Below, in pieces: positions 14,075 to 39,530 of a DNA stretch of 39,840 nt. The translations under genes and the position numbers were made by a program. The number at the start of each line of letters is the position of its first letter. Within the stretch, counting starts at the first letter, position 1. Source of the stretch: Pseudomonadota bacterium (GTDB lineage: Bacteria > Desulfobacterota > Desulfobacteria > Desulfobacterales > RPRI01); contig JBDRRF010000009.1 in assembly GCA_043825875.1 (NCBI GenBank), forward strand, positions 1 to 39,840, written 5' to 3'. Below the pieces are notes generated by a model. It was given only the letters and a program-made list of their open reading frames with translations. It had not been told where the DNA came from and ran no database searches.

Positions 14075-14223
14075 GCAAAGAGTCTGCCAATAACTGAAGG
14101 GAAATCAGAAGCTTGGATTCATGATTTAATAACAGGGAATTAGGTTAAAAGTAGATGATAGCAAAATACTTTGAAATGATTAATTGAACCTCAACATTTG
14201 GTTGAACCTCAAAATATTGATGG
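14075..14223 (-). promoter_or_regulatory. Sigma54 promoter cassette copy 1 (ahead of radical SAM unit)
   Basis: Minus strand TTGGCAGACTCTTTGCA (GG-N10-GC, 14075-14088); upstream element CCTCAACATTTGGTTGAACCTCAAAATATTGATGG at 14189-14223. Confidence 0.85.
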
Positions 14224-14325
14224 ATGCTGGAAGAACCTGACACTTAAAGTCAGAGAGACAGGTCAGGAAAAGGCAAGGCACCTCTAACATAGATGATACG
14301 ATGTATCCGCTAAATCAGGAGAAGA

Positions 14326-14505
14326 TTATTGTGTGCCGGCAGTCTCTAAAAACCAGCATTCGCTCCAGTTAAACCAGTACTCCTTCCGGGCAGATGTTAT
14401 TTTGATAATGAAACTATTAGAACTATCGGCACCCTTATAGGTCGCATCTTTAATTTCCATAGGCGGAAGGCTCTTGTCCTTCCAATGAACAATTATTGTA
14501 GCCAT
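14326..14505 (-). CDS. 59-aa small protein, below the ORF-track cut-off
   Basis: MATIIVHWKDKSLPPMEIKDATYKGADSSNSFIIKITSARKEYWFNWSECWFLETAGTQ*; AGGAG RBS 9 nt upstream. Confidence 0.65.
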   Translation of the reverse strand: MATIIVHWKDKSLPPMEIKDATYKGADSSNSFIIKITSARKEYWFNWSECWFLETAGTQ

Positions 14506-14539
14506 GACATTTATCTCCTGTTCTGATTGTCACTCAACA

Positions 14540-14681
14540 GAGCCAGTTTCAAAACGCCCTATTTTGGCCGATCTCTGCGTTGGGCTCAAATTTCAATCCT
14601 CGAAATACTAAATGTATTCCTGTGGTTGAAATTTTCGCCCGCCTTGAGCTTGACCAAACTGGAACGTTTTGAAAGTGGCTC
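14540..14681 (+). mobile_element. 142-bp MITE, copy 2
   Basis: TIRs GAGCCAGTTTCAAAACG / CGTTTTGAAAGTGGCTC; AACA target duplication (14536-14539, 14682-14685). Confidence 0.92.
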
Positions 14682-14778
14682 AACATATTGTAATATTTTT
14701 CTTCCTTATTGACAATTGACTGGGCCTTCGTAAATGACCCAGTCTCATTAATTTTTAATTGCCGAATAGTTAAATGTT

Positions 14779-15846
14779 TTAGTTTCGCATCCTGTCTGCA
14801 GGGTTTACGCCTTCACTCAGGAGAAGTACTTCAACTCTTCTGTTTTGCTTACGTCCATCAATGGTGCCATTATCAGCGGTTGCGTATTCTTCACCATAGC
14901 CCTTCATCGTGATTCTTTCGGGATTGATCCCCTTGTCGGTCAGTTTTGCCCCTACCGCATCGGCGCGCTGTTCAGAAAGAGCAATGTTCATCTTCTCCTT
15001 CCCTACGCTGTCCGTATATCCCTCAACCAATACGTTGACACGCGGATATTTATTCATAAACGCAACGAGTTTATCTATGTTGTAATCAGCCTTCGGAGAC
15101 AAAGCGACTCTGCCGGTGGAAAATAAAACATCTCCTAACGTCACGACTACACCCCGGTCTGTTTGCCTGACCATAAGTTTGGAAAGCTCTCTGATATACA
15201 TCTTGTTTTCAGCTTTTTCTTTTTCCGCTTTCCGTGCTTTAGCCTCAGCATCCATTTTATCTCTTTCCGTTTGCGCCAAAACAAGTGTCCTGTTCTCGGC
15301 CTCCATCTCAGCCTCTTTCAACTCAAGGGATTTGGCATCGACTTCTCCTTCTGCTATCCGTGCTTGAGCTTCCGCATCCATTTTATCTCTTTCGGTCTGT
15401 GCCAAAACAACAGCACTATCCTTGGCATCCATTTTAGCCTCTTTCAGCTCAAAGGATTTGGCATCGACCTGCCTCTTTGTTTGAAGAACAAGCCGATCCT
15501 TTTGCCTGCTGTAGGCTTCTTCTTCTTTCTCTGCTAACTTCCCTTCTGTAATGGCTTTGGCAATTTGTGTCTTCCTCTCTGCCAGATAGGCCTGGTGATC
15601 AATCTCTTTATAATCTGAGGCCAGCTCCCCGGCCTTGATGGCATCGCCGGCTTCCGTCAGATGCCCCTGGCCGTAGTTTGTTACATATTGATTCGACTCT
15701 GCCTGAGCAAGACTATTTCGGGCACGGTCTAAATGGTCTTTGGCCATCATTTGATTATGGGATGGTCCGCATCCTGCCACGAGGGAAATGATCAGCACGA
15801 GTAGGCCACAGCTTTTCTTTACTACTGTATATTTAATATCAGTCAT
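14779..15846 (-). CDS. OmpA-family lipoprotein (DUF4398 + coiled coil + OmpA C-terminal domain)
   Basis: Lipobox VAGC; QTDRGVVVTLGDVLF; EGYTDSVG..LSEQRA..NRRVEV. Confidence 0.9.
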   Translation of the reverse strand: MTDIKYTVVKKSCGLLVLIISLVAGCGPSHNQMMAKDHLDRARNSLAQAESNQYVTNYGQGHLTEAGDAIKAGELASDYKEIDHQAYLAERKTQIAKAITEGKLAEKEEEAYSRQKDRLVLQTKRQVDAKSFELKEAKMDAKDSAVVLAQTERDKMDAEAQARIAEGEVDAKSLELKEAEMEAENRTLVLAQTERDKMDAEAKARKAEKEKAENKMYIRELSKLMVRQTDRGVVVTLGDVLFSTGRVALSPKADYNIDKLVAFMNKYPRVNVLVEGYTDSVGKEKMNIALSEQRADAVGAKLTDKGINPERITMKGYGEEYATADNGTIDGRKQNRRVEVLLLSEGVNPADRMRN

Positions 15847-15870
15847 GTATATTATCTCCTTATAAAGTTA

Positions 15871-16272
15871 TTATTCGGCGGGCATACGCTCAACTTCGTG
15901 TCGCAGTGCATTGATGTTTTCTCTACTCATTTCTGTTGCTTTTTTCTCTTTCATAGATATGGCCTTAACACGTGCATAATCCGCATCAACCGAAGCCTGT
16001 TCAGATAAACGGGTAGCCGTTTCGTAATCATCATTTTCCAAAGCTTTCCCGGCTCCCGCCAGCTTGTCTGTCGCCAATTCAAGAGCAGCAGGAGCAATGA
16101 TTGCTGCATTACTCTCCCTGGCAATACTGATGGCTTTCTCACCCTCGGAAAATTTCGTAGTCGAAGTCTCACGGGTAAATGTTGATGCGCACCCACTGAC
16201 TATCAGCGATGCGAGGGCAATTATGCCCATGATAAAGAACAAGGGCTGTAGATTTCTTATATTAACGTTCAT
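15871..16272 (-). CDS. DUF4398 lipoprotein
   Basis: Lipobox VSGC; APAALELATDKL...ATRLSEQASVDADYA; lies upstream of the OmpA gene as is typical. Confidence 0.85.
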   Translation of the reverse strand: MNVNIRNLQPLFFIMGIIALASLIVSGCASTFTRETSTTKFSEGEKAISIARESNAAIIAPAALELATDKLAGAGKALENDDYETATRLSEQASVDADYARVKAISMKEKKATEMSRENINALRHEVERMPAE

Positions 16273-16378
16273 TTTCTTCTCCTTTTCTAAGATTCATCTG
16301 ATAAACATTTCCATCTCCGGAACCGTTCCTTGGATTTGTACAACTTGTAATTAAAGTAGCAGATATCAGTTTTAAATT

Positions 16379-16612: not shown

Positions 16613-17071
16613 TTATGAGTTTTTAAAACGAGCAATTACTTTGTCATAATCATCTCTCAGCTCATCTACTGCCTTGTCCATTCCCGATTTCACGTCATCC
16701 CAGGTTTCCCCGCTTGCTGACTTGAGCTCATTGAATTTTTCTGAAGCCGATTTTTTCTTCTTTTCTAATATAGCTATCTGATGGTTGTATTCATCCCTGG
16801 CATCATCTTTGAGCTCCATAGCCCCAGCTTTGAGTTTATCAATTTTTTGATCATAAGCTTTAAGATCGGCGTCGATTTGTTTCTGGTAAGCCTCTTTCTT
16901 CTGTTCGGTATACGCCACAACAGTATTCAAAGCTTCTTTGGATTCCTTTTTTACATCCTGCGCGGTTACCATTGATTCGGGTTCCTTTGCTTGATCCTGA
17001 TTGTTGCAAGCTGAAAAAAATAGTGAACTTACGAAGAGAGAGACAATAATAACCAAAGATTTCATTTTCAT
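16613..17071 (-). CDS. Coiled-coil lipoprotein, hypothetical
   Basis: Lipobox FSAC; Lys/Glu-rich helices; LKSASGETWDDVKSGMDKA motif; GGAG RBS. Confidence 0.8.
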   Translation of the reverse strand: MKMKSLVIIVSLFVSSLFFSACNNQDQAKEPESMVTAQDVKKESKEALNTVVAYTEQKKEAYQKQIDADLKAYDQKIDKLKAGAMELKDDARDEYNHQIAILEKKKKSASEKFNELKSASGETWDDVKSGMDKAVDELRDDYDKVIARFKNS

Positions 17072-17146: not shown

Positions 17147-18628
17147 TTATTTATCCTTTTTAGACTCAGTCCACTCTTCCAATTTACGGGCGGCAACATC
17201 ACGTCCACCGATACCAAAGGCTATGGCAGCCGCTACAGCTATTGCTCCTAAAATCAGACCGAAGGCCAGATTGATTATCTCGTTGGCTAAACCCATATGA
17301 CGGATTGCTATAGAGCCTGCCAGTATCAGGATTGCCACACGAGCCACGACTGACATCAGGCCCGCTTGAGCAGTTCCACTTGCCTGTATAGCCTTAGATG
17401 CCACATTCGCCAGGTACAGACCGATAACGATAATGATCAGACCCAACAGTATATGACCACCAAAGACAACAAGCTCTTCCATCAGATAAGAGAGCGATTT
17501 AAAGCCTATCAAATCAGATGCTTCAAATACTGCGATAAGCATAATCGTTATCAGCACCAGGTAGCCTGCTATTTCGGAAAGAGTTCTCTTTCCTTTTTCA
17601 GGTTCTTTACCTATGCCTAGGCGAAGAAGAATTGAGTTGAATCCAATGCCGGTCATGAGTTCGGTGATAAATCCTGAAACTACTTTCCCGACCACATAGG
17701 CAATTGTTATGACTAACACAGCAGCAAATATAGCCGGAAGCGCCCCCATGATCAGGTTCAACATGTTGCTGGCCGGTTGGGTGATAGAGTCCAGAGCTAG
17801 TGCATTAAGTGCGGCAATCATCACCGGGATAAGGATGAGTATGTAGACAATCAAGGCGATCATTTTGGACAGAGAAGTTACTTTTATCCGATCACTGAAT
17901 TTGTCCAGGCCGGTGGCAGCCAGCAGGGTACTCACAAGTTGTCTTACGATACGGGCAACGAACCAACCGATTACCCCGATCACACCAGCCGCCAGGATAT
18001 TGGGCAAGAAAGCTAAAAATTTGTCCAGCATACTCTGTACCGGATTGAGCAAGCCCTCAAGATTCAGTGCGCCTAACACCGCAGGTAGAAACAGCAAAAA
18101 GATCAGCCAATATATTACATCGCCGACCGTTTTTGTCAGTGGTACCCGCTTAGTTTGTTCATCGCTAATCCGGCCTCCTATCCGCTCGTCAAATTTTGCA
18201 ACATCCATCACCTTTGTGATGGCCAGGCGTGATACGGCTGCTGTTATCCAGGCAAGAAGCAGTAAAATACCCGCCCCAAGCAACCGGGGAAGAAATTGGA
18301 AAATATGATTCATAAGTTGCTCCAGAGGATCTATTACCATGGTGAGTCGTAATGCCTCGAAAAAGGCAATGAGTACCAAAACCATGATAAGCCAGAACAG
18401 GCCCCTGCCTATCACCTGGGCTGCGCTTTTCCCTTTACTTTCTTCTTCGCCCATGGCGCCTGAGATTTTACCGGCCAACCTTGTGCGCTGAAGTACATTG
18501 CGGACGACGGTAGATAAGATTAAAGCAACTAACCAACCGGCAATCAGGATGGCCAGGGCGCCGATAAGGTTAGGCAAATAATCAATAATCGATCCGATGA
18601 TCTGGTTTAACATATCTTTTCCTTGCAT
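17147..18628 (-). CDS. Multi-pass conserved TM-helix repeat protein (CmpX/mechanosensitive-channel-associated)
   Basis: Repeated (Y/F)LPxLxGAxxILxxGW units; C-terminal AIAFGIGGRDVA. Confidence 0.85.
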   Translation of the reverse strand: MQGKDMLNQIIGSIIDYLPNLIGALAILIAGWLVALILSTVVRNVLQRTRLAGKISGAMGEEESKGKSAAQVIGRGLFWLIMVLVLIAFFEALRLTMVIDPLEQLMNHIFQFLPRLLGAGILLLLAWITAAVSRLAITKVMDVAKFDERIGGRISDEQTKRVPLTKTVGDVIYWLIFLLFLPAVLGALNLEGLLNPVQSMLDKFLAFLPNILAAGVIGVIGWFVARIVRQLVSTLLAATGLDKFSDRIKVTSLSKMIALIVYILILIPVMIAALNALALDSITQPASNMLNLIMGALPAIFAAVLVITIAYVVGKVVSGFITELMTGIGFNSILLRLGIGKEPEKGKRTLSEIAGYLVLITIMLIAVFEASDLIGFKSLSYLMEELVVFGGHILLGLIIIVIGLYLANVASKAIQASGTAQAGLMSVVARVAILILAGSIAIRHMGLANEIINLAFGLILGAIAVAAAIAFGIGGRDVAARKLEEWTESKKDK

Positions 18629-18836: not shown

Positions 18837-18985
18837 GCAAAGAGCCTGCCAATACCCGGAGAAGAATTATAAGTTTGATTTTATCCTTTAATAACAGGAA
18901 AATATATTAACAGGCGATAACAGTCTAAAAGTATGAAACGATCCGTTTGGCCTCAATATATGGTGGAACATCAGTATATTGATGG
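18837..18985 (-). promoter_or_regulatory. Sigma54 promoter cassette copy 2
   Basis: TTGGCAGGCTCTTTGCA (18837-18850); element CCTCAATATATGGTGGAACATCAGTATATTGATGG at 18951-18985. Confidence 0.87.
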
Positions 18986-19610: not shown

Positions 19611-20675
19611 TTATTGTGGGGTTTCCTCAGTATTGGAAATTATTATTTCCACACGGCGATTTTGCTGCCGGCCGACAGAGGTATCATTGCCTGCCACAGG
19701 ATAGACCTCGCCCTTGCCTATAGTCTGAATTCGTGCCTGTTCAATCCCACTTGCAACAAGGGCATCTCGAACAGCATCAGCGCGTCGCTGCGAAAGGCCC
19801 AGATTATAAGTGTCGCTTCCTCTGCTATCGGTGTGCCCTTCAATTGTAACCATTCGCTCGGTGTGCTTCTTAAGAAACTCTGCGAGTTGGTCTATAGTGC
19901 GCATAGCTCCGGGTTGAAGGTTTGCCTTGTTGTTGGCAAAAAGCACATCGCCTAAAGTGAGCACAATGCCCCGGTCGGTCTGCTTCGCCTGAAGCTCATC
20001 AATCTCCGCTTTAAGCTCTGCTGCTTTTTTCCGGGCTTGTTCAGCCTCAAGAGCCATCGCTTGAGCTTCCTGTTTTGCCAATTCAAGCCGATTTGTTTGT
20101 TCTTCAGCTATCTTTCTGGCTTGCTCTATTTCCTGAAGCCGGGTTTGAGCTTCCTGTTTTGCCAGCTCAAGCTGTTTCATTTGTTCCAAAGCTTCCTGCT
20201 GTTTCATTGCAAGTTGTTGAGTTTTTTCTGTTGCCATCATGTTGGCTTGCTCTGCTTTCTTAGCGCTGGCATCGGCTTTAATATTGGCCTGCTTAGCTTC
20301 CATGCTGCGATTCTCCATCAGTATACGATTCCGCTCCTGATTAAGCCTCTCAACCTCAGATTCAGCCTTTTTTTGTTTCGCCATAGCCACAGCGATCTGA
20401 ACCTGCCTTTCGGCAAGATAAGCTTTCTGGTCTATATCTTGCATTTCCTTAGCTGCCTCAGCACTTTCCAGTGCCTTCTTGGCGTCATACATGGGCACTT
20501 GTGCATTAGCTACTATTTCAGGATTAGCGCTTGCATCAGAGTAAGCGGTGCGGGCACGTTCCAGTGCCTCGTTTGTCTTGGGAGTTGAAGCGCAACCAAG
20601 CATCATGCTTGTTGTCATCGTCACAATCATAAAAAACCCCAGATAGATTTTTACATTTTTCTTTGTTTTCACCAT
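19611..20675 (-). CDS. OmpA-family lipoprotein (DUF4398 + coiled coil + OmpA C-terminal domain)
   Basis: Lipobox MLGC; QTDRGIVLTLGDVLF; EGHTDSRG..LSQRRA..NRRVEI. Confidence 0.92.
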   Translation of the reverse strand: MVKTKKNVKIYLGFFMIVTMTTSMMLGCASTPKTNEALERARTAYSDASANPEIVANAQVPMYDAKKALESAEAAKEMQDIDQKAYLAERQVQIAVAMAKQKKAESEVERLNQERNRILMENRSMEAKQANIKADASAKKAEQANMMATEKTQQLAMKQQEALEQMKQLELAKQEAQTRLQEIEQARKIAEEQTNRLELAKQEAQAMALEAEQARKKAAELKAEIDELQAKQTDRGIVLTLGDVLFANNKANLQPGAMRTIDQLAEFLKKHTERMVTIEGHTDSRGSDTYNLGLSQRRADAVRDALVASGIEQARIQTIGKGEVYPVAGNDTSVGRQQNRRVEIIISNTEETPQ

Positions 20676-20712
20676 GGTGTGTCTCCTCCTTAATCCTTAA
20701 AACCGTTGATTT

Positions 20713-21105
20713 CTATTTTGATTGCATACGATTGATTTCTGACTGAAGGGTTTTAATGCTATCCCGAAGCTCTTCGGCGAATTTTTTCGCCTTTGCTTCG
20801 TTTGATTTTGCTCTCGCAAGAGTGGCGTCAGCTAAGGCTCTATCAGCAAGCCTCTGAGCCTTTTCATATTCTTCGTTTTCCATAGCAGCCTTTGCAGCCT
20901 TCAAATTATCCTGCGCCAATCTCAGTTCCAGCGGAGCGTATTTGTTGGCATCACTTTCTGCTGCCTGTTGAATGTTCATTTCCGTGTTTGCTATCTGACT
21001 TGTGGGTGGTACCCCAGTAGTACCACAGCCACACAAAGCTACCGAGCCCAAAATCAGGGGAACCGCAACTGCCTTTGTGATGTATTTACTTGCTTTCATA
21101 ACCAT
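20713..21105 (-). CDS. DUF4398 lipoprotein
   Basis: Lipobox LCGC; ANKYAPLELRLAQDNL...AQRLADRALADATLA. Confidence 0.9.
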   Translation of the reverse strand: MVMKASKYITKAVAVPLILGSVALCGCGTTGVPPTSQIANTEMNIQQAAESDANKYAPLELRLAQDNLKAAKAAMENEEYEKAQRLADRALADATLARAKSNEAKAKKFAEELRDSIKTLQSEINRMQSK

Positions 21106-21169
21106 TGATCCTCCTTATTATTTAATGTTTATTCATTCGCATGATTACAAGATTCATACGGCTATAGCA

Positions 21170-21318
21170 GCAAATAGTCTGCCAATAGCTGACAGAAAGT
21201 CAAAATATTGTATTAGTCATTTTATTGCTGTATGTTATATTGATAAGACAGAACAATCTAAAAGTATGAAATGATTCATTTGGCATCAATATATAGCGGA
21301 ACATCAGTATATTGATGG
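21170..21318 (-). promoter_or_regulatory. Sigma54 promoter cassette copy 3
   Basis: TTGGCAGACTATTTGCT (21170-21183); element CATCAATATATAGCGGAACATCAGTATATTGATGG at 21284-21318. Confidence 0.85.
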
Positions 21319-21341
21319 GTGTAAAGAGAAGTGCCGGGCCG

Positions 21342-22781: not shown

Positions 22782-22789
22782 GTTTCCTG

Positions 22790-23011: not shown

Positions 23012-23064
23012 TTTGCTCCCCCATTTCTGTCGTCAGCCCTGGTGGGTTGATAACTTTCTGCAGG

Positions 23065-23214: not shown

Positions 23215-23341
23215 AACATCCTCCTTTCAGTAGTTTATTGATAGCAATCCCTAAATCCTTATTTTGTTCGGGATAATTGTTTTCAAGGGGAAGGGACCGG
23301 ATCAACTTAAAACGTCTTTCCGGTTCCTTGCTCTCGTGCTC

Positions 23342-24935: not shown

Positions 24936-25083
24936 GCAAATAGTCTGCCAATAGCCGGAGAATAATTATGAGTTTGGAATTATCCCTTAATAACAGAAAG
25001 TTAGGTTAACAGGAGAGAGCAGGTTAAAAGTATGAAACGATTTGCTTCCCTCCATATTTGGTGGAACCTCAGAATGTTGATGG
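24936..25083 (-). promoter_or_regulatory. Sigma54 promoter cassette copy 4
   Basis: TTGGCAGACTATTTGCT (24936-24949); element CCTCCATATTTGGTGGAACCTCAGAATGTTGATGG at 25049-25083. Confidence 0.85.
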
Positions 25084-25883: not shown

Positions 25884-26032
25884 GCAAATAGTCTGCCAAT
25901 AGCCGAATGAATATCATAAGTTTGGATTAATCCTCTAATAACATGTGGTTAGATTAACAGGGGAAAACAGTAGAAAATTATGACATGATTCATTTGACCT
26001 CAATATTAGGCGGAACATCAACATATTGAGGA
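25884..26032 (-). promoter_or_regulatory. Sigma54 promoter cassette copy 5
   Basis: TTGGCAGACTATTTGCA (25884-25897); element CCTCAATATTAGGCGGAACATCAACATATTGAGG from 25998. Confidence 0.85.
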
Positions 26033-27846: not shown

Positions 27847-28064
27847 CAGGTTTCCGCTCCTTATTCACGGTTTTCTTTATGGTAGTATTGCATCGGTATG
27901 TGTTATAAAAATTGAAATGATTTGTTTAACCTCAACCTTTGGGTAAACACCTATATCTTGAGATATACTTTTAACGCAGAAGGAAGCAGATAGAGAAACC
28001 GGACCGCTATCGGAATTAAAATCGGTGTTTAACAACAATTTAGCAAGAAGCCACTCAGTTTTTC

Positions 28065-30119: not shown

Positions 30120-30268
30120 GCAAATAGCCTGCCAAGAACCGAAGGAGAATTATATATTTGGATTCGCCCTTTAATAACAGATGATTAGATTAACAGAAGA
30201 GAACAGCGGAAAAGTATGAAACGATTTGTTTGCCCTCAATATTTAGGGGAACCTCAGCATATGGACGG
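30120..30268 (-). promoter_or_regulatory. Sigma54 promoter cassette copy 6
   Basis: TTGGCAGGCTATTTGCT (30120-30133); element CCTCAATATTTAGGGGAACCTCAGCATATGGACGG at 30234-30268. Confidence 0.85.
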
Positions 30269-30334
30269 CTATTTTTGGAGGTGGACGGTTGACGCATGGG
30301 CAACCTTGAAGCGGCAGACCTGCAGGCAGAAATA

Positions 30335-30371: not shown

Positions 30372-30399
30372 ATGCTTTGCGATGTTTATCGGTAATTTA

Positions 30400-30978: not shown

Positions 30979-31254
30979 AATCTTCCCCTCTTTAATTAAT
31001 ATACTATTTTTTTTATAAAATCGGCCATAAAATTCCAAGCTTTTATGCTCGGGAACAACTGGTCACCTTAATACAAAGACATCGAAGACTTGGTAAAATT
31101 ATTCTGTGCCTGCGCACCTCCTTTCAAAATGACTCATGTTCTCCGGCAAGTATCTTAACGGTTGTAAAGGTCTTCTTTGTTTACGAGGCTAATTATAGTT
31201 TGACCTTTAGATGAAGTATATGGCTATAAGGACCATAACAATAAAAGGGTATAA

Positions 31255-31403
31255 GCAAATAGTCTGCCAATACCCGAAGGAGAATTATATATTTGGATTC
31301 GCCCTTTAATAACAGATGATTAGATTAACAGAAGTGAACAGCGGAAAAGTATAAAGCGACTCATTTAGCCTCAAGATTTGGTGGAACACCAACATGTTGA
31401 TAG
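31255..31403 (-). promoter_or_regulatory. Sigma54 promoter cassette copy 7, 23 bp after the bEBP1 stop
   Basis: TTGGCAGACTATTTGCT (31255-31268); element CCTCAAGATTTGGTGGAACACCAACATGTTGATAG at 31369-31403. Confidence 0.85.
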
Positions 31404-31426
31404 ATACTTTGAAGGGAGGCTGACAG

Positions 31427-33160
31427 TTAATCTGCCTCTTTTATTTCCGGCCGGACTATCCCGAGCTTATGCATCCTTGCTCTTAAGGTACTCGGATGAA
31501 GGCCAAGGATCAGTGCGGCTCCGTCCTTTCCATCGATGCGCCATCGGGTTTCGGAAAGAATTTTAAGAATCTGGTTTCGCTCCGTCTCTTCTAATGTCCT
31601 TACGACGGATGAAAGTGAGGCGGATGAAATTTTCAGTTTATCTGCTAGCTTCAAAACCGGCCCGGAGCACATGATCACGGCCCGTTCAATAATGCTTTCA
31701 AGCTCCCGGACGTTTCCGGGCCAAGGATAATTCTGAAGTTCCTTCATTGTCTCGTTCTGTATCGTGGTAATCTGTTTGCCCAATTTTCTGGAATACCGCT
31801 CAATGAATGTCTGGACCATCATGGGAATGTCATCTTGACGCTGCCTTAGTGGTGGAACAGTAATTGGGAAAACGTTTAGCCGATAGTAAAGATCCTGCCG
31901 GAACCGTCCTTTGCGGACCTCTTCCTCAAGGTCTCGATTGGTCGTTGCCACGATTCGCACATCGACTTTGATGGTACGTGATGAGCCCAGGCGCTCAAAC
32001 TCGTGATGTTGAACCACCCGGAGCAGCTTTGCCTGCAACAAAAGCGGTAGCTCCCCGATCTCGTCTAAGCAAACAGTGGAATTGTTGGCGATCTCGAACC
32101 GGCCTATCTGCTTGGTATCGGCTCCAGTATATGCCCCCTTCTCCCGGCCGAATAATTCGCTTTCTATTAAATTTTCCGGCAGTGCAGCACAGTTGACCAC
32201 AATTAATGGCCTTTCTTTACGGGGACTCATCTCATGGATAGCGGCAGCGATCAATTCTTTTCCGGTACCGGTTTCTCCGAGAACGAGAACAGTTGTGTTT
32301 GAGGGAGCAACTTGTTCCGCTCGATATATAACATACTTAAGGCCATCACTTTGCCCGATAATATTCTCAAATTGATATTTCATTTTGTGTTCGTGACGAA
32401 AGTAAAGATTTTCTGCTTCGAGCTGGGTTTTCAAAGTTTTGATTTCAGAAAGTGCTGTCCGAAGTGACTCTTCCGATATCTTTTGTTCGTCTAATTTCTG
32501 CGAGAGCCGCTCGTTTGCTATGATCAACTCTCCAGTCTTTTCCTTTATCTTAAGGTCAAGCTCGCGATACGCTTTTTCCAGTAGTTCTTCCGTTCGCTTT
32601 TGCTCGGTGATATCAATTATTGTGGTAAGTATATAATCGGCACTATCATCAATATTCTCTTTAGCTACGCTTTGGAGCTGGGCATAGAATGTTGTGCCAT
32701 CTTTTTTCTTAAGTCTGATTTCACAGGTATGCTTGCCAGGTTTTTGAAAAACTTCTTTACGGTGGTTCGAAAAAAATTTCCTCCCGTCTGCATCGGGAAT
32801 AAAACTGATAAAAGGTTTTTTTGCCAGCAGCCGCCTCTCTATTCCCAGCAGTTGGCAGCCGGTAAGATTTACCTCATCTATAAGTCCGTGCGTATCAATG
32901 GTGAAATAACCCACGGGTGCAAAGTCATATAGTTCGGAATACTTATTCCGCGACAACTCAAGCTCCTCCTGGGCTTGGCGCAGCTCTGCATTCTGCATCT
33001 CCAGTTCGATCTGGTGGACCTCGAGTTCATGGACAAGCCTCTGTGCGGCTTCCTCGGCCTTGGGATGCTGCAAATCCTCTTTTTTCTCATACAACCGTGC
33101 TTCTGCCTGGCGGCGCAGTTCGGTGGCTGTTGAATGTTTCTTCTCTTTGGAAATACCCAT
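31427..33160 (-). CDS. Sigma54 enhancer-binding protein 1 (coiled coil + PAS + AAA+ + Fis-type HTH)
   Basis: [13 protein letters not shown] coil, [75 protein letters not shown]. Confidence 0.95.
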   Translation of the reverse strand: MGISKEKKHSTATELRRQAEARLYEKKEDLQHPKAEEAAQRLVHELEVHQIELEMQNAELRQAQEELELSRNKYSELYDFAPVGYFTIDTHGLIDEVNLTGCQLLGIERRLLAKKPFISFIPDADGRKFFSNHRKEVFQKPGKHTCEIRLKKKDGTTFYAQLQSVAKENIDDSADYILTTIIDITEQKRTEELLEKAYRELDLKIKEKTGELIIANERLSQKLDEQKISEESLRTALSEIKTLKTQLEAENLYFRHEHKMKYQFENIIGQSDGLKYVIYRAEQVAPSNTTVLVLGETGTGKELIAAAIHEMSPRKERPLIVVNCAALPENLIESELFGREKGAYTGADTKQIGRFEIANNSTVCLDEIGELPLLLQAKLLRVVQHHEFERLGSSRTIKVDVRIVATTNRDLEEEVRKGRFRQDLYYRLNVFPITVPPLRQRQDDIPMMVQTFIERYSRKLGKQITTIQNETMKELQNYPWPGNVRELESIIERAVIMCSGPVLKLADKLKISSASLSSVVRTLEETERNQILKILSETRWRIDGKDGAALILGLHPSTLRARMHKLGIVRPEIKEAD

Positions 33161-33359
33161 TGCTAACCTTGATCCTCAAACAGACTTTAAAGCCTTGCAT
33201 ATTCTTGGCGCAGATCCGCCTCCAGCCAGCAGGAGGCGATGCCGATACCGACAATTGGAAAAAGGATGGCTCTCTTGCCACGATGGTGTGCCTTTTGGGG
33301 AAGACCCGTCTCGTTTATTGCCCCAGTTAGCCGGTTTAGTTTGATTTTTCATAATTTTA

Positions 33360-33387
33360 AATATATCAGATTTTTTTATATATACAA
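33360..33387 (-). promoter_or_regulatory. Putative sigma70 promoter of bEBP1
   Basis: TTGTAT-N16-TATATT with TG extension; paralogous position upstream of bEBP2. Confidence 0.4.
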
Positions 33388-33480
33388 AGGGTATTTTCAA
33401 TGGTTTCGGATAATTTGAGCCATTTTAGAGGTGGAGTTGCTGAGAAAAAGGGTATGGTGCAGAGTGGGGGAGTCTTAAGA

Positions 33481-33600
33481 TTATAAGTTTCTAAAAACTT
33501 TAATAATTTCCATTGCTGAAAATCCGTCAAATTCACCTATCAGGTCAATATATAAATTAACTTCACTTTGGTGAGCAGTTATTCTGAAATTTGATGTCAT
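33481..33600 (-). pseudogene. Truncated STAS-like paralog (39 aa)
   Basis: MTSNFRITAHQSEVNLYIDLIGEFDGFSAMEIIKVFRNL*; nearly identical to the N-terminus of 34776-35069, then diverges. Confidence 0.8.
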
Positions 33601-33631
33601 TGGTTTAAAGCTCTATTGTTTACAGTATTGA

Positions 33632-33844
33632 TCAGGGCTTAGAATATGAAAGAGAAAATGCCTCAAGTTCTGAATAATTATTCGAGCATGTTGTTATTTT
33701 AACCAAACTCCTCTGCAACTGATTCAATATCTTGCAATCATTAGTGCAAGACGGTAAATTCTTTTTTAACTTGCAATCTCTGCAAGGGCTTTTCTTAAGA
33801 TGTCCGGCATAGTGATCAAGTTTTATTTCACATGAAATATCCAT
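33632..33844 (-). CDS. Small Cys-rich protein (CxxC-x8-CxxxC), copy A
   Basis: GHLKKSPCRDCKLKKNLPSCTNDCKIL; paralog at 38684-38896. Confidence 0.8.
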   Translation of the reverse strand: MDISCEIKLDHYAGHLKKSPCRDCKLKKNLPSCTNDCKILNQLQRSLVKITTCSNNYSELEAFSLSYSKP

Positions 33845-33927
33845 TGTATCTTCCTTCCTGATTGTTCATTTCCACCGCCGGTTATTGCATCACCATACAT
33901 GCCGGGGCATGATATGCCGCTTTCTTA

Positions 33928-34314
33928 CTATTTGTCCAAAACCTTTTTGGCCTGAACGGTCTTTTCCTGAACTTTGCCTTCTGTCCGGTCCTTTGTGCTG
34001 GATTTCATGTAAATATCCTCCATCCCTGCCGGGTCGAAAACGGTGTGGAACATCCTTTCATAGGGCTTTTTGAGAAGAATCATCGCTCCCTCAAGCACCT
34101 TATAATGCTCCGAGTTCAGGTGGGCCATAAGGTTTTCCCGGGTATCCCATTCTTCAAGAAGAAAGAGTCGATTTTCATCCTCTATACTCTGGAAGAAGTC
34201 ACAGCGCCGGCATCCTTTCTCCATCCTTATGGAACCAGACAGTGAAGTAATCGTCTGTGACAATTCCATTCGCTTTTCTGAATGTACCTTCATTCGAGTG
34301 GTTACAAGTATCAT
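33928..34314 (-). CDS. ABM-fold (antibiotic biosynthesis monooxygenase / putative quinol monooxygenase) protein
   Basis: EKGCRRCDFFQSIEDENRLFLLEEWDT..AHLNSEHY. Confidence 0.88.
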   Translation of the reverse strand: MILVTTRMKVHSEKRMELSQTITSLSGSIRMEKGCRRCDFFQSIEDENRLFLLEEWDTRENLMAHLNSEHYKVLEGAMILLKKPYERMFHTVFDPAGMEDIYMKSSTKDRTEGKVQEKTVQAKKVLDK

Positions 34315-34326
34315 AACAAATTTAAA

Positions 34327-34475
34327 GCAAATACCCTGCCAATACCAAAATGAGAATTGTAAGTTTGGTTTTATCCTTTAATAACAGAGAATTAAATTAA
34401 CAGGGGAGAGCAGTCTGAAAGTATGAAATGATTTGTTTGTCCTCAATATTTGGTGGAGCCTCAGCATATCGATGG
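34327..34475 (-). promoter_or_regulatory. Sigma54 promoter cassette copy 8
   Basis: TTGGCAGGGTATTTGCT (34327-34340); element CCTCAATATTTGGTGGAGCCTCAGCATATCGATGG at 34441-34475. Confidence 0.87.
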
Positions 34476-34500
34476 TTGCGAAGAGAAAAGACAGAAAAAT

Positions 34501-34640
34501 TTATTCCGGTTATTTTAACCCGGGCCGGACTATTCCAGGCATATGCATCCTTGATCTTAAGGTACTTGAATGAAAGAACAGGATCGCTGCGGCCCTGTTC
34601 TTTTTTGTCTATACGCCATCAAATTTCGGAAAGGGTTTTA
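34501..34640 (-). pseudogene. Degenerate 3' end (HTH) of a third bEBP
   Basis: KTLSEI*WRID[frameshift][32 protein letters not shown] aligns to the bEBP2 C-terminus. Confidence 0.85.
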
Positions 34641-34775
34641 TGAAGCTATAACCATTGAAGGACAAAAGGAGTCACCCGTCGGGATAGAGAATAATGGACT
34701 CGAAAAAAACCCAGCTCCAGGTTGAGGAGGGAAGAACTTTGTCCTGGAGCCGGGTGGGGGAGAGAATTGCTAGTA

Positions 34776-35069
34776 TTAACACCAAAATGGATTGCCCTCT
34801 TGAGGCTCCATTATGTTTCCATGTTTGCCGATAATCTGTAGTCCATTCAGAGAATCATCAGTCATAAGCTCTTTTTGAAGCATACCCACTACAATAGGAT
34901 TTATTAGATAAAGATCTTTTGAGTTAATTATGATGTTTTTAACCTTGTTGCTATATTCTTTTAAAACATTAATCAGTTCCATCGCTGAAAATCCGTCAAA
35001 TTCACCAATCAGGTCAAGATATAAATTAACTTCACTTTGGTGCGCAGTTATTCTGAAATTTGATGCCAT
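34776..35069 (-). CDS. STAS-like small protein
   Basis: LYLDLIGEFDGFSAMELINVL..NIIINSKDLYLINP; 97 aa; GGAGG RBS. Confidence 0.7.
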   Translation of the reverse strand: MASNFRITAHQSEVNLYLDLIGEFDGFSAMELINVLKEYSNKVKNIIINSKDLYLINPIVVGMLQKELMTDDSLNGLQIIGKHGNIMEPQEGNPFWC

Positions 35070-35107
35070 TATTTTAAACCTCCATTGATGATTTTATGCT
35101 ATAACCA

Positions 35108-35407
35108 TCATACATCCTTGCTGGGTATAAAACGGTGTAGAATATCCATATCGTAAGGCTCTATAAGAAGGCTCATCGCCCCCCTCAGCACCTTAAAATG
35201 CTCCGATTCCATGTAGGCAGTAAGGTTCTTCCGGATATCCCATTCTTCAATAAGAAAGAGTTGGTTCTCATCCTCGAAACTTTGGTATAAGTCGCAACGC
35301 CGGCAACCCATCTCCATCTTTATCGAAGAGGAGAGAGAAGCAATCGCCTGCGACAATTCCATGCGTTTCTCTGGAAGTACCTTCATATGTATGATTGTGA
35401 TAATCAT
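35108..35407 (-). CDS. ABM-fold protein, paralog (start corrected to MIITIIH)
   Basis: EMGCRRCDLYQSFEDENQLFLIEEWD..SEHF; the ORF-track start at 35419 lies between the -12 element and the predicted +1. Confidence 0.85.
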   Translation of the reverse strand: MIITIIHMKVLPEKRMELSQAIASLSSSIKMEMGCRRCDLYQSFEDENQLFLIEEWDIRKNLTAYMESEHFKVLRGAMSLLIEPYDMDILHRFIPSKDV

Positions 35408-35420
35408 CACATTAGCCATT

Positions 35421-35569
35421 GCAAATATTTTGCCAATAGCCGAAAAGTAATCGAAAAATTGAATATATCAATTGATAACAGATGATTAAAATAACAAGTG
35501 TGAAAGGCGGAAAACTTTAAATTGATCTATTTAGCCTCAACAATTGGTGAAACATCAATATATTGATAG
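35421..35569 (-). promoter_or_regulatory. Sigma54 promoter cassette copy 9, 24 bp after the bEBP2 stop
   Basis: TTGGCAAAATATTTGCA (35421-35434); element CCTCAACAATTGGTGAAACATCAATATATTGATAG at 35535-35569. Confidence 0.85.
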
Positions 35570-35593
35570 ATAAGCTGAGATGGGACAGACAGT

Positions 35594-37645
35594 TTATGAT
35601 TCCGGCTCTTTTAAACCAGGCCGGACTATACCGAGCTTATGCATCCTCGCTCTTAAGGTGCTTGGGTGAAGGCCCAGGATCACTGCGGCTCCGTTTTTTC
35701 CATTAATGCGCCATCTGGTTTCGGAAAGGATTTTAAGAATTTGGGTTCTATCAGTTTCTTCCAATGATCTCACTCCGGATAAAAGTGAGGGGGGTAAATT
35801 TTGCAGTCTATCTGCAAGATAAAAAACCGGTTCGGGACTCAAGACTACTGACCGTTCAATAATGCTTTCAAGTTCCCGGACATTTCCGGGCCATGAATAG
35901 TTCTGAAGCGTCTTCATCGTATTGTCCTGGATTGAGGTAATCTTTTTGCCCAGTTTCCTGGAATATCGCTCTATGAAGGCCTTTACCATCAGCGGGATGT
36001 CGTCTTTCCGTTGTCTGAGAGGCGGGACAGATATTGGGAAAACGTTGAGCCGGTAGAAAAGGTCCTGCCTGAAGTGACCTTTACGGACCTCTGCCTCAAG
36101 GTCTCGATTGGTTGTTGCCACAATCCTTACATCGACTTTGATGGTTTTAGACGAGCCCAGGCGCTCAAATTCGCTATGCTGGATTACACGGAGCAACTTT
36201 GCCTGCAACTCTATTGGTAGTTCCCCGATCTCGTCTAAGCAAAGGGTGGAACCATTGGCGATTTCGAATCGGCCTATCTGCCTGGTGTCGGCTCCGGTAA
36301 ATGCTCCCTTCTCCCGGCCGAATAATTCACTTTCTATTAAATTTGCCGGCAGGGCGGCACAGTTGACCGTGATCAAGGGCCCTTCCCTACGGGGACTCAT
36401 TTCATGGATGGCGGCAGCGATCAGCTCTTTCCCCGTACCGGTTTCTCCGAGAATAAGGACTGTTGTATTCGCAGGGGCAACCTGCTCCGCCCGATAGAGA
36501 ACATACTTTAAGCCGTCACTTTCACCGATAATATTCTCAAATTGATGTTTCATTTTATTTTCTTGACGAAAGTAAATATTCTCTACTTCAAGCTGGTCTT
36601 TCATTGTTTTAATTTCAGAAAGAGCCGTCTTAAGCTCGGCTGTACGTTTATCTACCTGGTGTTCAAGTTCATCATGGGCTTTTTGTAGAGTCTCCCTCAT
36701 TTTATTGCGTTCGGTGATGTCTATGCAGATGCCAACCCATTCCAGAATACTTCCGTCTTTCTTAAATGTAGGAACACCACGAACCAAAAAAAGCCGATAT
36801 ATCCCGTCTTGTCTGCGTATACGGTATTCGACTTCATATTCACTTTTTGTTGAGACTGCTTTATTCCATGCCTCCAATGTATGTTTAACATCATCCGGAT
36901 GAAGCGCTTTTGCCCATTCCGAGCCTGTTATTTCTTCTTTGCTTTGGCCGGTAAATTTTCTCCATGCAGGAAGATCCTCTATAACATAGCCTTCAGAATT
37001 TGTACTCCAGGCCAATTCCCCTGTAACTTCAATATAGGATCTATAGCGTGCTTCACTTGCGCGCAGCTTTTCATCTGCATTTTTGGTCTCGGTGATATCA
37101 AGCATTGCTGTATAAATATAACTTGCCTTATCGTCTATATCCTCCTTTGTTATGCTTTGGAGCTGTGCATGGAATACAGTTTCATCTTTTCTCTTAAGAC
37201 TGATTTCGCAGGTCTGGTTGCTCTGGTTTTGAAATACTTCTTCACAGTATTTCGAAAAATCCACCCTACCTTTTGCATCGGCAATAAAATTTATAAAGGG
37301 TTTATTGGCCAGCTGTTGTCTTTCTATTCCCAGCATTTGTGCTCCGGTAAGATTTATCTTCTTTATCAATCTTTGCGTATTAAGGGTGAAATAGCCAACT
37401 GGTGCAAAGTCATATAGTTCGGTATATATATTCTTCGATAATTCAAGCTCCTCATGGGCACGGCGCAGCTCTGCATTTTGCATTTCCAACTCAATCTGGT
37501 GGACCTCAAGTTCATGAAAGAGCCTCTGTGATTCTTCATCGGTCATTGGAAGTTGCATATGCGCCTTTTTAGCATGTAACTGCTCCTCTGCCTGGCCGCG
37601 CAGTTTAACTGATTCTGGTTGTTTCTGTTTTTTAGAGATATCCAT
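35594..37645 (-). CDS. Sigma54 enhancer-binding protein 2 (coiled coil + 2 PAS + AAA+ + Fis-type HTH)
   Basis: As bEBP1 plus an extra PAS ([18 protein letters not shown]); canonical GAFTGA. Confidence 0.96.
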
Positions 37646-37793
37646 TGTTAACCATGAGCCTTGAGCAGACTTTTAAGTCTTGCATTTTCTTGTGCAGATC
37701 CGCTTTGAGAATCTTTGCAGGTGTAATGTCAGAAAAGATGATCGTAACCCCGCCGGGTTTATTGCCAGTCTGATTTGCTTTTTCGTGATGTTA

Positions 37794-37822
37794 AATATAA
37801 CAGGATTTCCTTAATTTGCCAA
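37794..37822 (-). promoter_or_regulatory. Putative sigma70 promoter of bEBP2
   Basis: TTGGCA-N17-TATATT with TG extension. Confidence 0.45.
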
Positions 37823-37926
37823 AGGTATTTTTACACATTAATAAACCGGGCTGGGGAGAGGAGTTGCTGATTAAATCAACGCGGATTGATTTTGTTGTTT
37901 CTAACTGATGCCGGCAGGGGAGTTTC

Positions 37927-38313
37927 TCATGCGAATCCTTCTCCCTTGTTATATAAAACCCAATGACGTTTGCCCTGACGCTGATAGTGCTGTTCTCTAA
38001 ATGGGGCAACAAGATGTATCCTCCAGTCTTGATATGGATCTGCTGCCGCCAGTTCTTCAGCCTGAGCTACTGTCATATAATCGTTACAGCTTTGTGTTTC
38101 AATCTCTGAATATATGCACTCACCATTTTTAGTCAGTAACGCATTGCCGAATCCAACAGCGATTACTTCTTCCATAGGCAGAATTATATGTCTGCATGTA
38201 CGAGAAGGGTTTGTATTATCATCTGTATCAAAGTCGTTAAGCGGTATAAAACCTAATATTTCTCGAAATAAAGAAGCGCGATCGTTTCCCGATATAATTG
38301 TTTGGCTATTCAT
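37927..38313 (-). CDS. Hypothetical protein
   Basis: 128 aa ORF; IAVGFGNA..DWRIHLVAPF..YQRQG..W..GEGFA; function not recognised. Confidence 0.65.
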   Translation of the reverse strand: MNSQTIISGNDRASLFREILGFIPLNDFDTDDNTNPSRTCRHIILPMEEVIAVGFGNALLTKNGECIYSEIETQSCNDYMTVAQAEELAAADPYQDWRIHLVAPFREQHYQRQGKRHWVLYNKGEGFA

Positions 38314-38381
38314 AAAAACCTTGTTTATATTGTTATAATTTTAAATGTTGTAAATGTCTTTCAGATATCAAACTATTCCTT

Positions 38382-38675
38382 CTAATACCAGAAGGAATAG
38401 TCTTCTTGAGGTTCCATCATATTTCCATGTTTGCCAATAAATCTAAGTCCATGTAAAGAATTATTGGTCATACATTCTTTTTGAAGTACACCCAATCCAA
38501 AAGGATGTATTAAATAAAGACCACTTGTGTTGATGATGATGTTTTTCGTTTTTTTGCTGTAGGCTTTTAAAATATTGATCAGTTCAGTTGCTGAAGATCC
38601 GTCAAATTCTCCTATCAGCTCAAGATATATGTTAACTTTACTCTGGTGAGTAGTTATTCTGAAATTTGTTGCCAT
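38382..38675 (-). CDS. STAS-like small protein, paralog
   Basis: IYLELIGEFDGSSATELINIL..IIINTSGLYLIHPFGLGVL. Confidence 0.75.
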   Translation of the reverse strand: MATNFRITTHQSKVNIYLELIGEFDGSSATELINILKAYSKKTKNIIINTSGLYLIHPFGLGVLQKECMTNNSLHGLRFIGKHGNMMEPQEDYSFWY

Positions 38676-38683
38676 AATATAAA

Positions 38684-38896
38684 TTAAGATCGGGTATATG
38701 AAAGAGAAAATGATTCAAGCTCAGAATAATTATTTGAGCATGATATTATATCCACCAAATCTGTTTGCAATTGGCTCAATATTTTGCAATCATTAGTACA
38801 AGACGGTAAATTCTTTTTTAACTTGCAATCTCTACAAGGGCTTTTTTTAAGATGTCCGGTATAGCAATCAAGTTTTTTTCCATAAGAAATATCCAT
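38684..38896 (-). CDS. Small Cys-rich protein, copy B
   Basis: Identical core GHLKKSPCRDCKLKKNLPSCTNDCKIL; AGGAGG RBS. Confidence 0.82.
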   Translation of the reverse strand: MDISYGKKLDCYTGHLKKSPCRDCKLKKNLPSCTNDCKILSQLQTDLVDIISCSNNYSELESFSLSYTRS

Positions 38897-38936
38897 TTTG
38901 TCCTCCTGTGATTTCTGAAGTTAATTACTTGATATA

Positions 38937-39185
38937 TTATGCCAAGTCTATATTGGAACGTAGTTGCGCAATCTGAATTCCCAACCCGATACATTGTTTT
39001 CCGGCCATACAGGTATCAGCATCTTCAGGCTCCAAATGAGTTTTCAGTTCATGCTCCCCTTTTTTCAGATCAACAATCCAGGCTTTTTTTGCCTTATCAT
39101 AATCAACTTTGACATCTATTCCACATGCGCCGATATCCGGATATATTGATTTAATTTTTTCGCATAATTCCTTTTTGTTAAACAT
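38937..39185 (-). CDS. Small hypothetical protein with four Cys
   Basis: MFNKKELCEKIKSIYPDIGACGIDVKV...DADTCMAGKQCIGLGIQIAQL; AGGGG RBS. Confidence 0.75.
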   Translation of the reverse strand: MFNKKELCEKIKSIYPDIGACGIDVKVDYDKAKKAWIVDLKKGEHELKTHLEPEDADTCMAGKQCIGLGIQIAQLRSNIDLA

Positions 39186-39359
39186 GGCCGCCCCTTTCAA
39201 TATTAAAATTTAAATTAAGATAAGTAAAAGCTGCTATATCAATTGATTCCGGGTTAATTTATGCTTAGTATAAATCAGTATCATTTCACATAACGGCAAA
39301 TATTCTATATATTGTTTGGTACAACTTGTTTCTATATTACGAAAACTTTCATTTTTAAT

Positions 39360-39530
39360 GCAATTACCTTGCCATTAATAGGAATAAAAACCAATATATT
39401 AGTATAATGCTATAAATCCAATTTATTAGCTAAGTATTAAGATTAAGTTAGATTAGTGATAGAATTGAAAGCGTATAGCAAAACAGCATAGATAGTGTCA
39501 GCATTTGGTCAGGTATCAAAATAGTGATAT
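39360..39530 (-). promoter_or_regulatory. Divergent-sequence sigma54 cassette copy 10
   Basis: ATGGCAAGGTAATTGCA (39360-39373); element TGTCAGCATTTGGTCAGGTATCAAAATAGTGATA from 39496. Confidence 0.65.

Follow-up and report, generated by a model that had tools for sequence, protein, structure and literature searches.

Homologous copies of a predicted sigma-54 enhancer-promoter module precede envelope and stress genes in a genome of the Desulfobacterota

The 39,840-bp contig C9 (JBDRRF010000009.1), in the following called the window, carries on its minus strand an array of similar non-coding blocks, here termed cassettes c1 to c10. In our judgment these blocks are quite probably homologous copies of one sigma-54 enhancer-promoter module that was segmentally duplicated, heads stress operons, and is driven by bacterial enhancer-binding proteins (bEBPs). 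The window is a whole contig of genome G000, which comprises 4.77 Mb in 118 contigs.

RESULTS

A family of homologous cassettes

The pattern TGGCA-N6-TTGC was found 10 times in the window, always on the minus strand (at 14075, 18837, 21170, 24936, 25884, 30120, 31255, 34327, 35421, and 39360). On average, 0.60 matches were obtained from 100 dinucleotide-shuffled sequences, none of which gave as many as 10. Nine of the sites lie inside strongly homologous blocks of about 165 nt; the tenth, at 39360, is diverged. A repeat search of the window returned a 9-copy direct-repeat family of 180 nt and a 10-copy family comprising the 50-nt region of the upstream activator site (UAS). Alignment of the copies showed unbroken homology from the upstream element via the spacer to the promoter. 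A profile of nine copies, applied to the 4.77-Mb genome, regained all nine with E values of 1e-34 to 9e-46 and additionally yielded three members: two complete copies, both on contig C111, and a relic at 27912-27967 that consists of the UAS only (cX). Copy c10 was missed by this profile and gave a weak match (E 5.2e-4) with a 52-copy model built from full-length members of G000, same-genus genomes, and named loci from metagenome-assembled genomes (MAGs). The family thus has 13 members in G000, 11 of them within one 26-kb array, and all copies are oriented toward co-oriented minus-strand open reading frames (ORFs). Coordinates are given in Table 1.

An initial annotation of this DNA had listed ten minus-strand copies. 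All ten were regained and are real; its list lacked the two C111 copies and the UAS-only relic. The distances that it gave between the -12 position and the upstream element were reproduced (114 nt in copies 1-3 and 5-9, 113 in copy 4, and 136 in copy 10), and so was the stronger divergence of copy 10, where the alignment shows an insertion of about 22 nt. Aligning the copies and scanning the genome and its relatives with a profile, as had been proposed there, confirmed a homologous family with further members in relatives. Random orientation of copies relative to genes across the genome, which had been named as a counterargument, was not found, all 13 copies pointing toward downstream genes.

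Anatomy of the cassette

Among 52 aligned full-length members, the upstream element consists of two 16-bp sites spaced 18 bp centre to centre, in a register that is constant in 50 members. Together they form a 34-bp element that spans 114-147 nt upstream of the -12 element. Site 1 is a palindrome of the type CCTCAATATATTGAGG; site 2 is half-degenerate, its right half alone being conserved (CCACCAAATATTGAGG). Site 1 and TGGC are 131 nt apart in 34/52 members, with an overall range of 128 to 133 nt. The promoter consensus TTGGCAG-N4-TTTGC fits the sigma-54 -24/-12 class, in which GG and GC are separated by 10 nt within a TGGCAC-N5-TTGCW-like sequence, and conservation is nearly complete at its two core dinucleotides (GG in 52/52, GC in 52/52 and 51/52). 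At sequence level, the earlier identification of a GG-N10-GC promoter of sigma-54 type with an upstream activator site was therefore upheld. A scan of positions 20000-39840 for sigma-70 promoters and terminators found promoter-like sites to be rarer than in shuffles and nothing consistent within the cassettes.

The spacer between the two elements is about 97 nt long and AT-rich, aligns almost gap-free, and has conserved blocks of its own (CTGTTAAT, TGTTATTAAAGGAT-AATCCAA, and TTCGG). Among the 11 full G000 copies, mean pairwise identity rose from 66% in the spacer to 79% in the UAS and 88% in the promoter. The spacer homology had been taken as a sign of physical copying rather than convergence, and this is borne out by the identity values and by gene relics that stand in register with the cassettes.

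Gene relics next to the cassettes

Two of the copies, c8 and c10, are preceded by relics of bEBP 3'-ends (Table 1). On the downstream side, a DNA profile of ABM gene 5'-ends, trained on other genomes only, detected starts or relics after 7 of 12 G000 copies, beginning always 13-15 nt past the GC. Intact starts follow c8, c9, and one C111 copy; relics follow c5 (E 1.5e-15), the other C111 copy (3.4e-13), c4 (1.4e-11), and c3 (0.0036). The best of 240 shuffled targets scored 1.6 bits. The region at 31-39.8 kb is composed of tandem paralogous modules of bEBP, cassette, ABM gene, and a gene for a 97-amino acid (aa) STAS-like protein. In a self-comparison, the ends of the homology varied from pair to pair of copies. 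These observations point to an origin of the cassette copies by segmental duplication of a bEBP-cassette-ABM unit, after which the flanking gene pieces decayed: the copies drag bEBP and ABM relics along and show neither fixed ends nor terminal inverted repeats.

The 97-aa STAS-like genes travel with the bEBP-cassette-ABM module. Their resemblance to anti-sigma-antagonist families is faint (TIGR00377, E 3.7e-6; Pfam STAS, E 0.049).

Age and distribution

In trees of the copies, those of G000 group with counterparts from G008, G011, and G013 rather than among themselves. It follows that the majority of the duplications are older than these species and that the copies are not being homogenized by gene conversion. 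Spacer identity between G000 and G008 was 86-98% in five of six orthologous pairs and 64% in the sixth, and 75.5% of the four-fold degenerate sites of bEBP2 (179/237) were identical between the same genomes. The comparison suggests that selection acts on the spacer.

A BLAST search with one copy gave matches within the genus only and in 0 of 24 genomes of other families of the order, a limit of sensitivity, as the 52-copy model later showed. With this model, 14 of 151 sampled genomes of the order matched at E 1e-3 or better, with at least 13 copies in G000, at least 10 in G013, and at least 1 in most others. Across the phylum, 8 of 151 sampled genomes (G000 included) matched at E 1e-5 or better. 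Among them are members of other families, with at least 8 copies in G298, at least 2 each in G251 and G300, and at least 1 each in G232, G266, and G270. The cassette of the distant genomes lies again between a bEBP stop region before it and an ABM start after it. In the tree, the eight copies of G298 form a cluster with those of G232, G266, and one named MAG locus, separate from every copy of the genus; the module was therefore amplified at least twice independently. At the G298 loci L101-L106, some cassettes are followed by intact ABM genes and others by decayed ABM starts, mirroring the window.

Candidate activators

G000 has one rpoN gene, a 481-aa open frame on C76 that matches PF04552 with 208 bits; its full bEBP genes number about 39. 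No rpoS gene was found above the curated cut-off. Two bEBP genes with an intact Walker A motif and a GAFTGA or GAYTGA loop lie in the array itself, in agreement with the earlier proposal of locally encoded activators. Over their last 120 residues the two proteins, bEBP1 and bEBP2, are 73% identical, the helix-turn-helix (HTH) stretch being near-identical; no NCBIfam equivalog scored above its cut-off for the bEBPs. Paralogs with a similar C-terminus are encoded elsewhere in G000, on C15 (436 aa, 80% identity) and C66 (935 aa, 62% identity). In orthologs from other genomes the AAA+ and HTH domains are kept and the N-terminal sensor modules differ, so that several inputs may converge on one operator.

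A scan of species-representative genomes with bEBP1 gave 77 loci, mostly labelled as Deltaproteobacteria, Syntrophaceae, Smithellaceae, or Syntrophus MAGs. The cassette profile matched 15 of these loci. In 14 of them, which are unrelated MAG loci, the cassette directly follows the bEBP gene, at a distance of 20-260 nt from where the bEBP match ends. Within the genus, 10 of 16 other genomes have a homolog of the C-terminal 90 residues of the bEBP (E 1e-10 or better). A cassette BLAST match was present in nine of these ten, all with at least 62% identity of the homolog, two of the nine matches being weak and short. The tenth genome, with 51% identity, had no cassette match, nor did any of the six genomes lacking the homolog. 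As the sample consists of incomplete MAGs and close kin, this co-occurrence is consistent evidence and not statistical proof. From conserved adjacency and co-occurrence we infer that the bEBPs of the array bind the paired 16-bp sites.

The ABM genes and their products

Both ABM proteins of the window match PF03992 well above the gathering cut-off of 23.1 bits (60.6 and 47.4 bits). Over all loci examined, 16 intact cassette-linked ABM genes were found, and in every one the ATG follows the -12 GC by 12 nt (5 genes), 13 nt (9 genes), or 14 nt (2 genes), which leaves no room for a ribosome-binding site. In 11 aligned ABM proteins, M1 is invariant and the first beta-strand conserved, with third-position variation in the DNA. 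Transcription from sigma-54 promoters normally starts about 12 nt downstream of the GC. If it does so here, the arrangement implies that the ABM mRNA is leaderless. Full-text literature searches found no description of an mRNA that is both leaderless and sigma-54-dependent.

A complex of bEBP1 (residues 230-577) and ABM (residues 1-100) was modelled with ipSAE values of 0.81, 0.81, and 0.80, compared with 0.00 for the best of three controls. Of 157 solved complexes, 116 attained the mark used for this score, as did 2 of 215 mismatched pairs; these counts are rough since own alignments were used. The runs agreed in 100% of contacts, and the partner pLDDT was 88. The modelled contacts involve bEBP1 residues 271-283, 410-412, and 429-440 and ABM residues 13-24 and 69-80, which are largely invariant columns in both alignments. 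A sequence search of the PDB returned ABM relatives as stand-alone structures only and no solved complex with an AAA+ protein; the high score therefore does not derive from a solved look-alike that can be found by sequence. The model supports, and does not show, binding of ABM to the AAA+ domain of the bEBP. By analogy with PspA and PspF, ABM may feed back on its activator, with an effect in either direction.

Genes headed by the cassettes

The window cassettes head genes for B12-radical-SAM, mechanosensitive-channel-like, sll1863-family, DUF4398, DUF4398-OmpA, OprF/OmpA porin, AsmA-like, response-regulator receiver, CsbD, triple-BON OsmY-like, PEP-CTERM, ABM, and STAS-like proteins. Downstream of the two C111 cassettes are genes for BON proteins and an ABM gene that is followed by a TolC/HlyD/C39-ABC exporter. 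A cyclic beta-1,2-glucan synthase-like gene situated between the two C111 cassettes fits an osmotic theme. In relatives, including the independently expanded lineage, the same gene families recur, together with YtxH, DUF5670, DUF3096, LapA-domain, AI-2E transporter, PLD-like, SPFH, and FtsH proteins. CsbD, YtxH, OsmY/BON, Usp, and OmpA-like lipoproteins are typical of general-stress regulons of other bacteria. Gene content thus suggests that the cassette-headed genes form an envelope, osmotic, and general stress regulon that would be run by sigma-54. The two DUF4398-OmpA genes contain in-frame tandem repeats, at 15217-15468 (126 nt x 2) and 20017-20184 (84 nt x 2).

Table 1. Positions of cassettes, gene relics, and neighbouring genes (in the window unless another contig is named)
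Feature	Position	Strand	Description
c1	14075..14222	-	-24/-12 at 14075-14089; two UAS sites at 14189-14222; profile E 2.9e-38; downstream: B12-radical-SAM gene 12512-13990, perhaps further genes past it
c2	18837..18984	-	Profile E 7e-45; downstream: mechanosensitive-channel-like gene 17147-18628, sll1863-family stress gene 16613-17071, DUF4398 and DUF4398-OmpA genes
c3	21170..21317	-	Followed by short ABM relic of 26 nt; downstream: DUF4398 gene 20713-21105, DUF4398-OmpA gene 19611-20675
c4	24936..25082	-	Spacer 1 nt shorter; followed by ABM relic of about 100 nt; downstream past relic: OmpA/OprF-like porin gene 23342-24394, AsmA-like gene 21342-23117
c5	25884..26031	-	Followed by ABM relic 25768-25872 (protein-level E 4e-6); downstream past relic: response-regulator receiver gene 25191-25808
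cX	27912..27967	-	UAS-only relic without -24/-12; E 2.7e-5; upstream of 124-aa ORF 27472-27846
c6	30120..30267	-	Profile E 8.8e-46; downstream: CsbD-like gene 29523-29960, OsmY-like triple-BON gene 28271-29026
c7	31255..31402	-	Starts 15 nt past bEBP1 stop; heads PEP-CTERM protein gene 30400-31038
c8	34327..34474	-	Heads intact ABM gene ABM8
c9	35421..35568	-	Starts about 25 nt past bEBP2 stop; downstream: intact ABM gene ABM9 (ATG at 35407) and 97-aa STAS-like gene 34776-35069
c10	39360..39529	-	Diverged (TGGCAAGGTAATTGC); spacer insertion of about 22 nt; downstream: 87-aa, 97-aa STAS-like, and 128-aa ORFs, possibly bEBP2 through read-through
bEBP1	31427..33160	-	577 aa; coiled coil, PAS, AAA+ (Walker A intact, GAYTGA), HTH_8
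bEBP2	35594..37645	-	683 aa; coiled coil, two PAS, AAA+ (Walker A intact, GAFTGA), HTH_8
bEBP 3'-end relic	34504..34644	-	HTH region; just upstream of c8; 33 aa, 73% identity, E 4e-10
bEBP 3'-end relic	39570..39689	-	Upstream of c10; 40 aa, 68-72% identity, E 1e-15
ABM8	33928..34314	-	Intact ABM gene, PF03992, conserved G-C-x-R-C-D motif; ATG 12 nt past c8 -12 GC
ABM9	35108..35407	-	Second intact cassette-linked ABM gene; ATG 13 nt past c9 GC
97-aa paralogous gene	34776-35069		Faint STAS/anti-sigma-antagonist likeness
97-aa paralogous gene	38382-38675		Faint STAS/anti-sigma-antagonist likeness
97-aa paralogous gene, decayed	33494-33900		Decayed copy
Ice-binding-like (PF11999) PEP-CTERM protein gene	26201-27136	+	Sole sizeable plus-strand gene in array; divergent from c5
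144-bp repeat	12044-12187		Partly palindromic; copies 93-98% identical
144-bp repeat	14540-14683		Opposite orientation
144-bp repeat	39701-39840		At contig end
Gene block	1-12000		Co-oriented, downstream of c1: ATP synthase alpha/beta subunit, DUF2254, phosphoketolase, heavy-metal P-type ATPase, acetate kinase, alpha-glucan phosphorylase, Usp
Cyclic beta-1,2-glucan synthase-like gene	C111 (L001 5490-14162)		2890 aa, GH94 domains; between the two C111 cassettes, beside BON-domain genes

Other features of the window

The first 12,000 nt of the window have a GC content of 50-55%, compared with 39.1% genome-wide, and this block looks like a horizontal acquisition. The partly palindromic 144-bp repeat, of which the window holds three copies, gave 312 BLAST hits across G000, many of them at contig ends. 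It looks like a high-copy element related in kind to miniature inverted-repeat transposable elements (MITEs) or REPINs that breaks the assembly, and is unrelated to the promoter cassette.

Among public sequencing runs, one DNA run and zero RNA runs are listed with the stretch. Two metatranscriptome runs of the same study had next to none of its sequence words, which says nothing on expression.

DISCUSSION

The proposed model starts from an ancestral unit in which the module would have been flanked by the stop codon of a PAS-type bEBP gene on one side and by an ABM-domain gene on the other. Segmental duplication appears to have copied this unit many times in the genus and, independently, in one or more further families of the phylum. 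Flanking gene pieces would then have decayed, leaving copies at the head of envelope, osmotic, and general-stress operons. The two bEBPs of the array, and paralogs with a similar HTH encoded elsewhere, would bind the paired sites, form an AAA+ ring, and contact sigma-54 RNA polymerase by looping of the spacer. In response to signals at the variable PAS modules, the promoter would be opened through ATP hydrolysis. The ABM protein, as first product of the ancestral unit, probably binds the AAA+ domain of the activator and feeds back.

Several points weigh against this model. Sigma-54 dependence, start sites, and bEBP binding are read from sequence. The loop of bEBP1 is GAYTGA and not the canonical GAFTGA found in its paralog bEBP2. 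The neutral yardstick for spacer constraint is a single gene, bEBP2. The E. coli consensus for the bending protein IHF is WATCAANNNNTTR, and a comparison by eye of the spacer consensus with it gave no good match. Five of the 12 G000 copies (c1, c2, c6, c7, and c10) have no ABM relic detectable with the 5'-end profile. Several distant loci have non-ABM genes after a bEBP-adjacent cassette, and the ancestral bEBP-cassette-ABM order is therefore likely rather than certain. Per-genome copy counts from the 52-copy model scans of order and phylum are lower bounds. The assembly of G000 is metagenome-style, in 118 contigs, and at 45.6% the GC content of the window is the highest among 65 contigs of at least 20 kb; the window contig is nevertheless tied to G000 by the 144-bp repeat with its 312 genome-wide hits, which is also present in it. 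Finally, c10 is diverged and the copy at 27912 is a relic without promoter.

The last point could also mean that only the copies adjacent to bEBP or ABM genes work and that the others are decaying by-products of duplication, with no real regulon. Loss of the promoter at 27912, the divergence of c10, and the gene relics, which show ongoing decay in the array, would all be expected in this case. However, copies upstream of non-ABM genes have retained the -24/-12 core and its spacing, as have their orthologs in other species, and the same stress-gene families follow the copies in independently expanded lineages. We therefore give this explanation about one chance in ten, the highest that we allow any of the alternatives.

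A smaller chance is left to the blocks being a non-autonomous, MITE-like mobile element that carries a promoter and transposes ahead of genes. In favour of it, the blocks occur in many copies of about 165 nt, G000 does harbour a true high-copy palindromic repeat of 144 bp, and MITEs that bear promoters exist, e.g. the Correia elements cited in PMC3575422. The placement and number of the copies speak against transposition: all 13 face downstream genes, 11 of the 13 lie in one 26-kb array, orthologous positions are conserved across species, and most positive genomes have a copy number of 1. In addition, the ends of the homology vary by pair and run into bEBP and ABM relics, and the ends of the consensus are not inverted repeats of each other by inspection, no systematic search for target-site duplications having been made. 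On balance this explanation is improbable.

Two further alternatives can be put aside as very improbable. A structured RNA, either a 3' untranslated region or terminator of the bEBP gene or a small RNA, might be suspected because the block begins right past the bEBP stop and its first site, a perfect palindrome, might form a hairpin; against this, an Rfam scan of the window gave 0 matches at gathering score, RNAalifold on the 52 copies gave -2.17 kcal/mol with 5 pairs, 0 compensatory changes, and no conserved fold, most copies have no preceding bEBP gene, and the invariant columns are exactly the GG and GC of the -24/-12 promoter. Convergent selection for the same bEBP, bending-protein, and sigma-54 sites in place of common descent would account for the UAS and the -24/-12 element being the most conserved columns, but not for a near gap-free spacer with 66% mean identity among G000 paralogs or for homology running on into coding-sequence relics without a binding role; the in-register gene relics already contradict it.

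Duplication of a sigma-54 enhancer-promoter module is thus the reading that we retain, with some changes to how the region was first described. The initial annotation had spoken of a portable promoter module placed ahead of unrelated genes to build a local regulon. The module was indeed copied ahead of genes of different Pfam families; it is no free element, since relics were dragged along and fixed ends are lacking, and the genes, though of different families, are functionally coherent (stress and envelope). Likewise, the bEBPs are encoded in the array, but the regulon is not confined to the window, two copies being on C111.

Sigma-54 enhancer-promoter units and bEBP regulons are textbook knowledge, and reuse of similar promoters is already catalogued. 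Classical examples are NtrC at glnAp2, NifA at nif promoters, and XylR at Pu. The cassette resembles these units in its GG-N10-GC motif, the paired dyad sites at some 100-150 bp upstream, the GAFTGA loop and C-terminal HTH of its AAA+ activator, and a spacer of fixed length, which implies looping. It differs in that homology extends over the entire unit of about 150 bp, including the spacer, so that the unit forms a single sequence family, used 8-13 times per genome and recognizable across families of the phylum. The activator and its site are uncharacterized here, and the ancestral target gene is predicted to be leaderless.

In the PspF-PspA system, a bEBP regulon for envelope stress, the product of the first target binds the AAA+ domain of the activator. 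The envelope-stress theme and a first-target product on the AAA+ domain, here in a model only, are shared with the cassette system. The partner, however, is of ABM fold and not PspA/IM30, and the bEBPs described here have PAS domains, which PspF lacks, so that the likeness is functional only. General stress regulons are run by sigma-B in Bacillus, sigma-S in enterobacteria, and EcfG in alphaproteobacteria. The same gene families are found here under a predicted sigma-54 promoter with an ATP-dependent activator and not under a stress sigma factor of the sigma-70 family.

A further comparison is with the sigma-54 regulome of Desulfovibrio vulgaris, for which dozens of bEBPs, some of them for envelope or general stress, and predicted AT-rich palindromic sites are reported in the parts of Kazakov et al. 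2015 (PMC4641369) that were consulted. That organism, too, is a member of the former Deltaproteobacteria, with many bEBPs and sites of the same AT-rich palindromic kind. Neither a repeated homologous promoter cassette nor an ABM partner was seen in those parts of the paper.

Similar upstream regions before non-paralogous genes within one genome were described as "putative mobile promoters" by Nijveen, Matus-Garcia and van Passel 2012 (PMC3575422), whose criterion was an identity of 80% or more across a minimum of 50 nt ahead of non-paralogous coding sequences. Copies c6 and c7 share 85% identity over 165 nt, c2 and c8 82% over 161, c2 and c4 81% over 156, and c6 and c8 80% over 150, with downstream genes of different Pfam families. 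That survey left the mechanism and function of mobile promoters open. In comparison, the class of the present promoters is evident (sigma-54 with enhancer), their source is the bEBP-ABM intergenic region, segmental duplication is visible, and the copies are old. Searches of the full-text literature, in which most subscription journals lie outside the coverage, found no description of the cassette, the operator, the bEBP family, or the bEBP-ABM pair. Matches to the operator motif in the literature were unrelated PCR primers.

Growth of regulons is usually ascribed to small binding sites that arise before genes. In G000, regulon growth appears to have proceeded by whole enhancer-spacer-promoter units of about 150 bp. 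Gene relics reveal the source of the module and the route that it took, so that promoter duplication can be read straight from the sequence. A 16-bp operator can be defined, and the analysis names a candidate family of activators along with a candidate modulator protein. A possible general-stress system is also indicated for a large group of anaerobes without an obvious RpoS. Should transcription begin at the positions expected of a sigma-54 promoter, the ABM genes would give rise to sigma-54-dependent leaderless mRNAs. More tentatively, and with roughly a one-in-three expectation of being right, the system may be an unrecognized sigma-54 general stress response of the Desulfobacterota, in which PAS-type bEBPs with interchangeable sensors and one DNA-binding domain act together with an ABM feedback partner made from a leaderless transcript, and in which the regulon was wired by enhancer-promoter duplication independently in at least two lineages.

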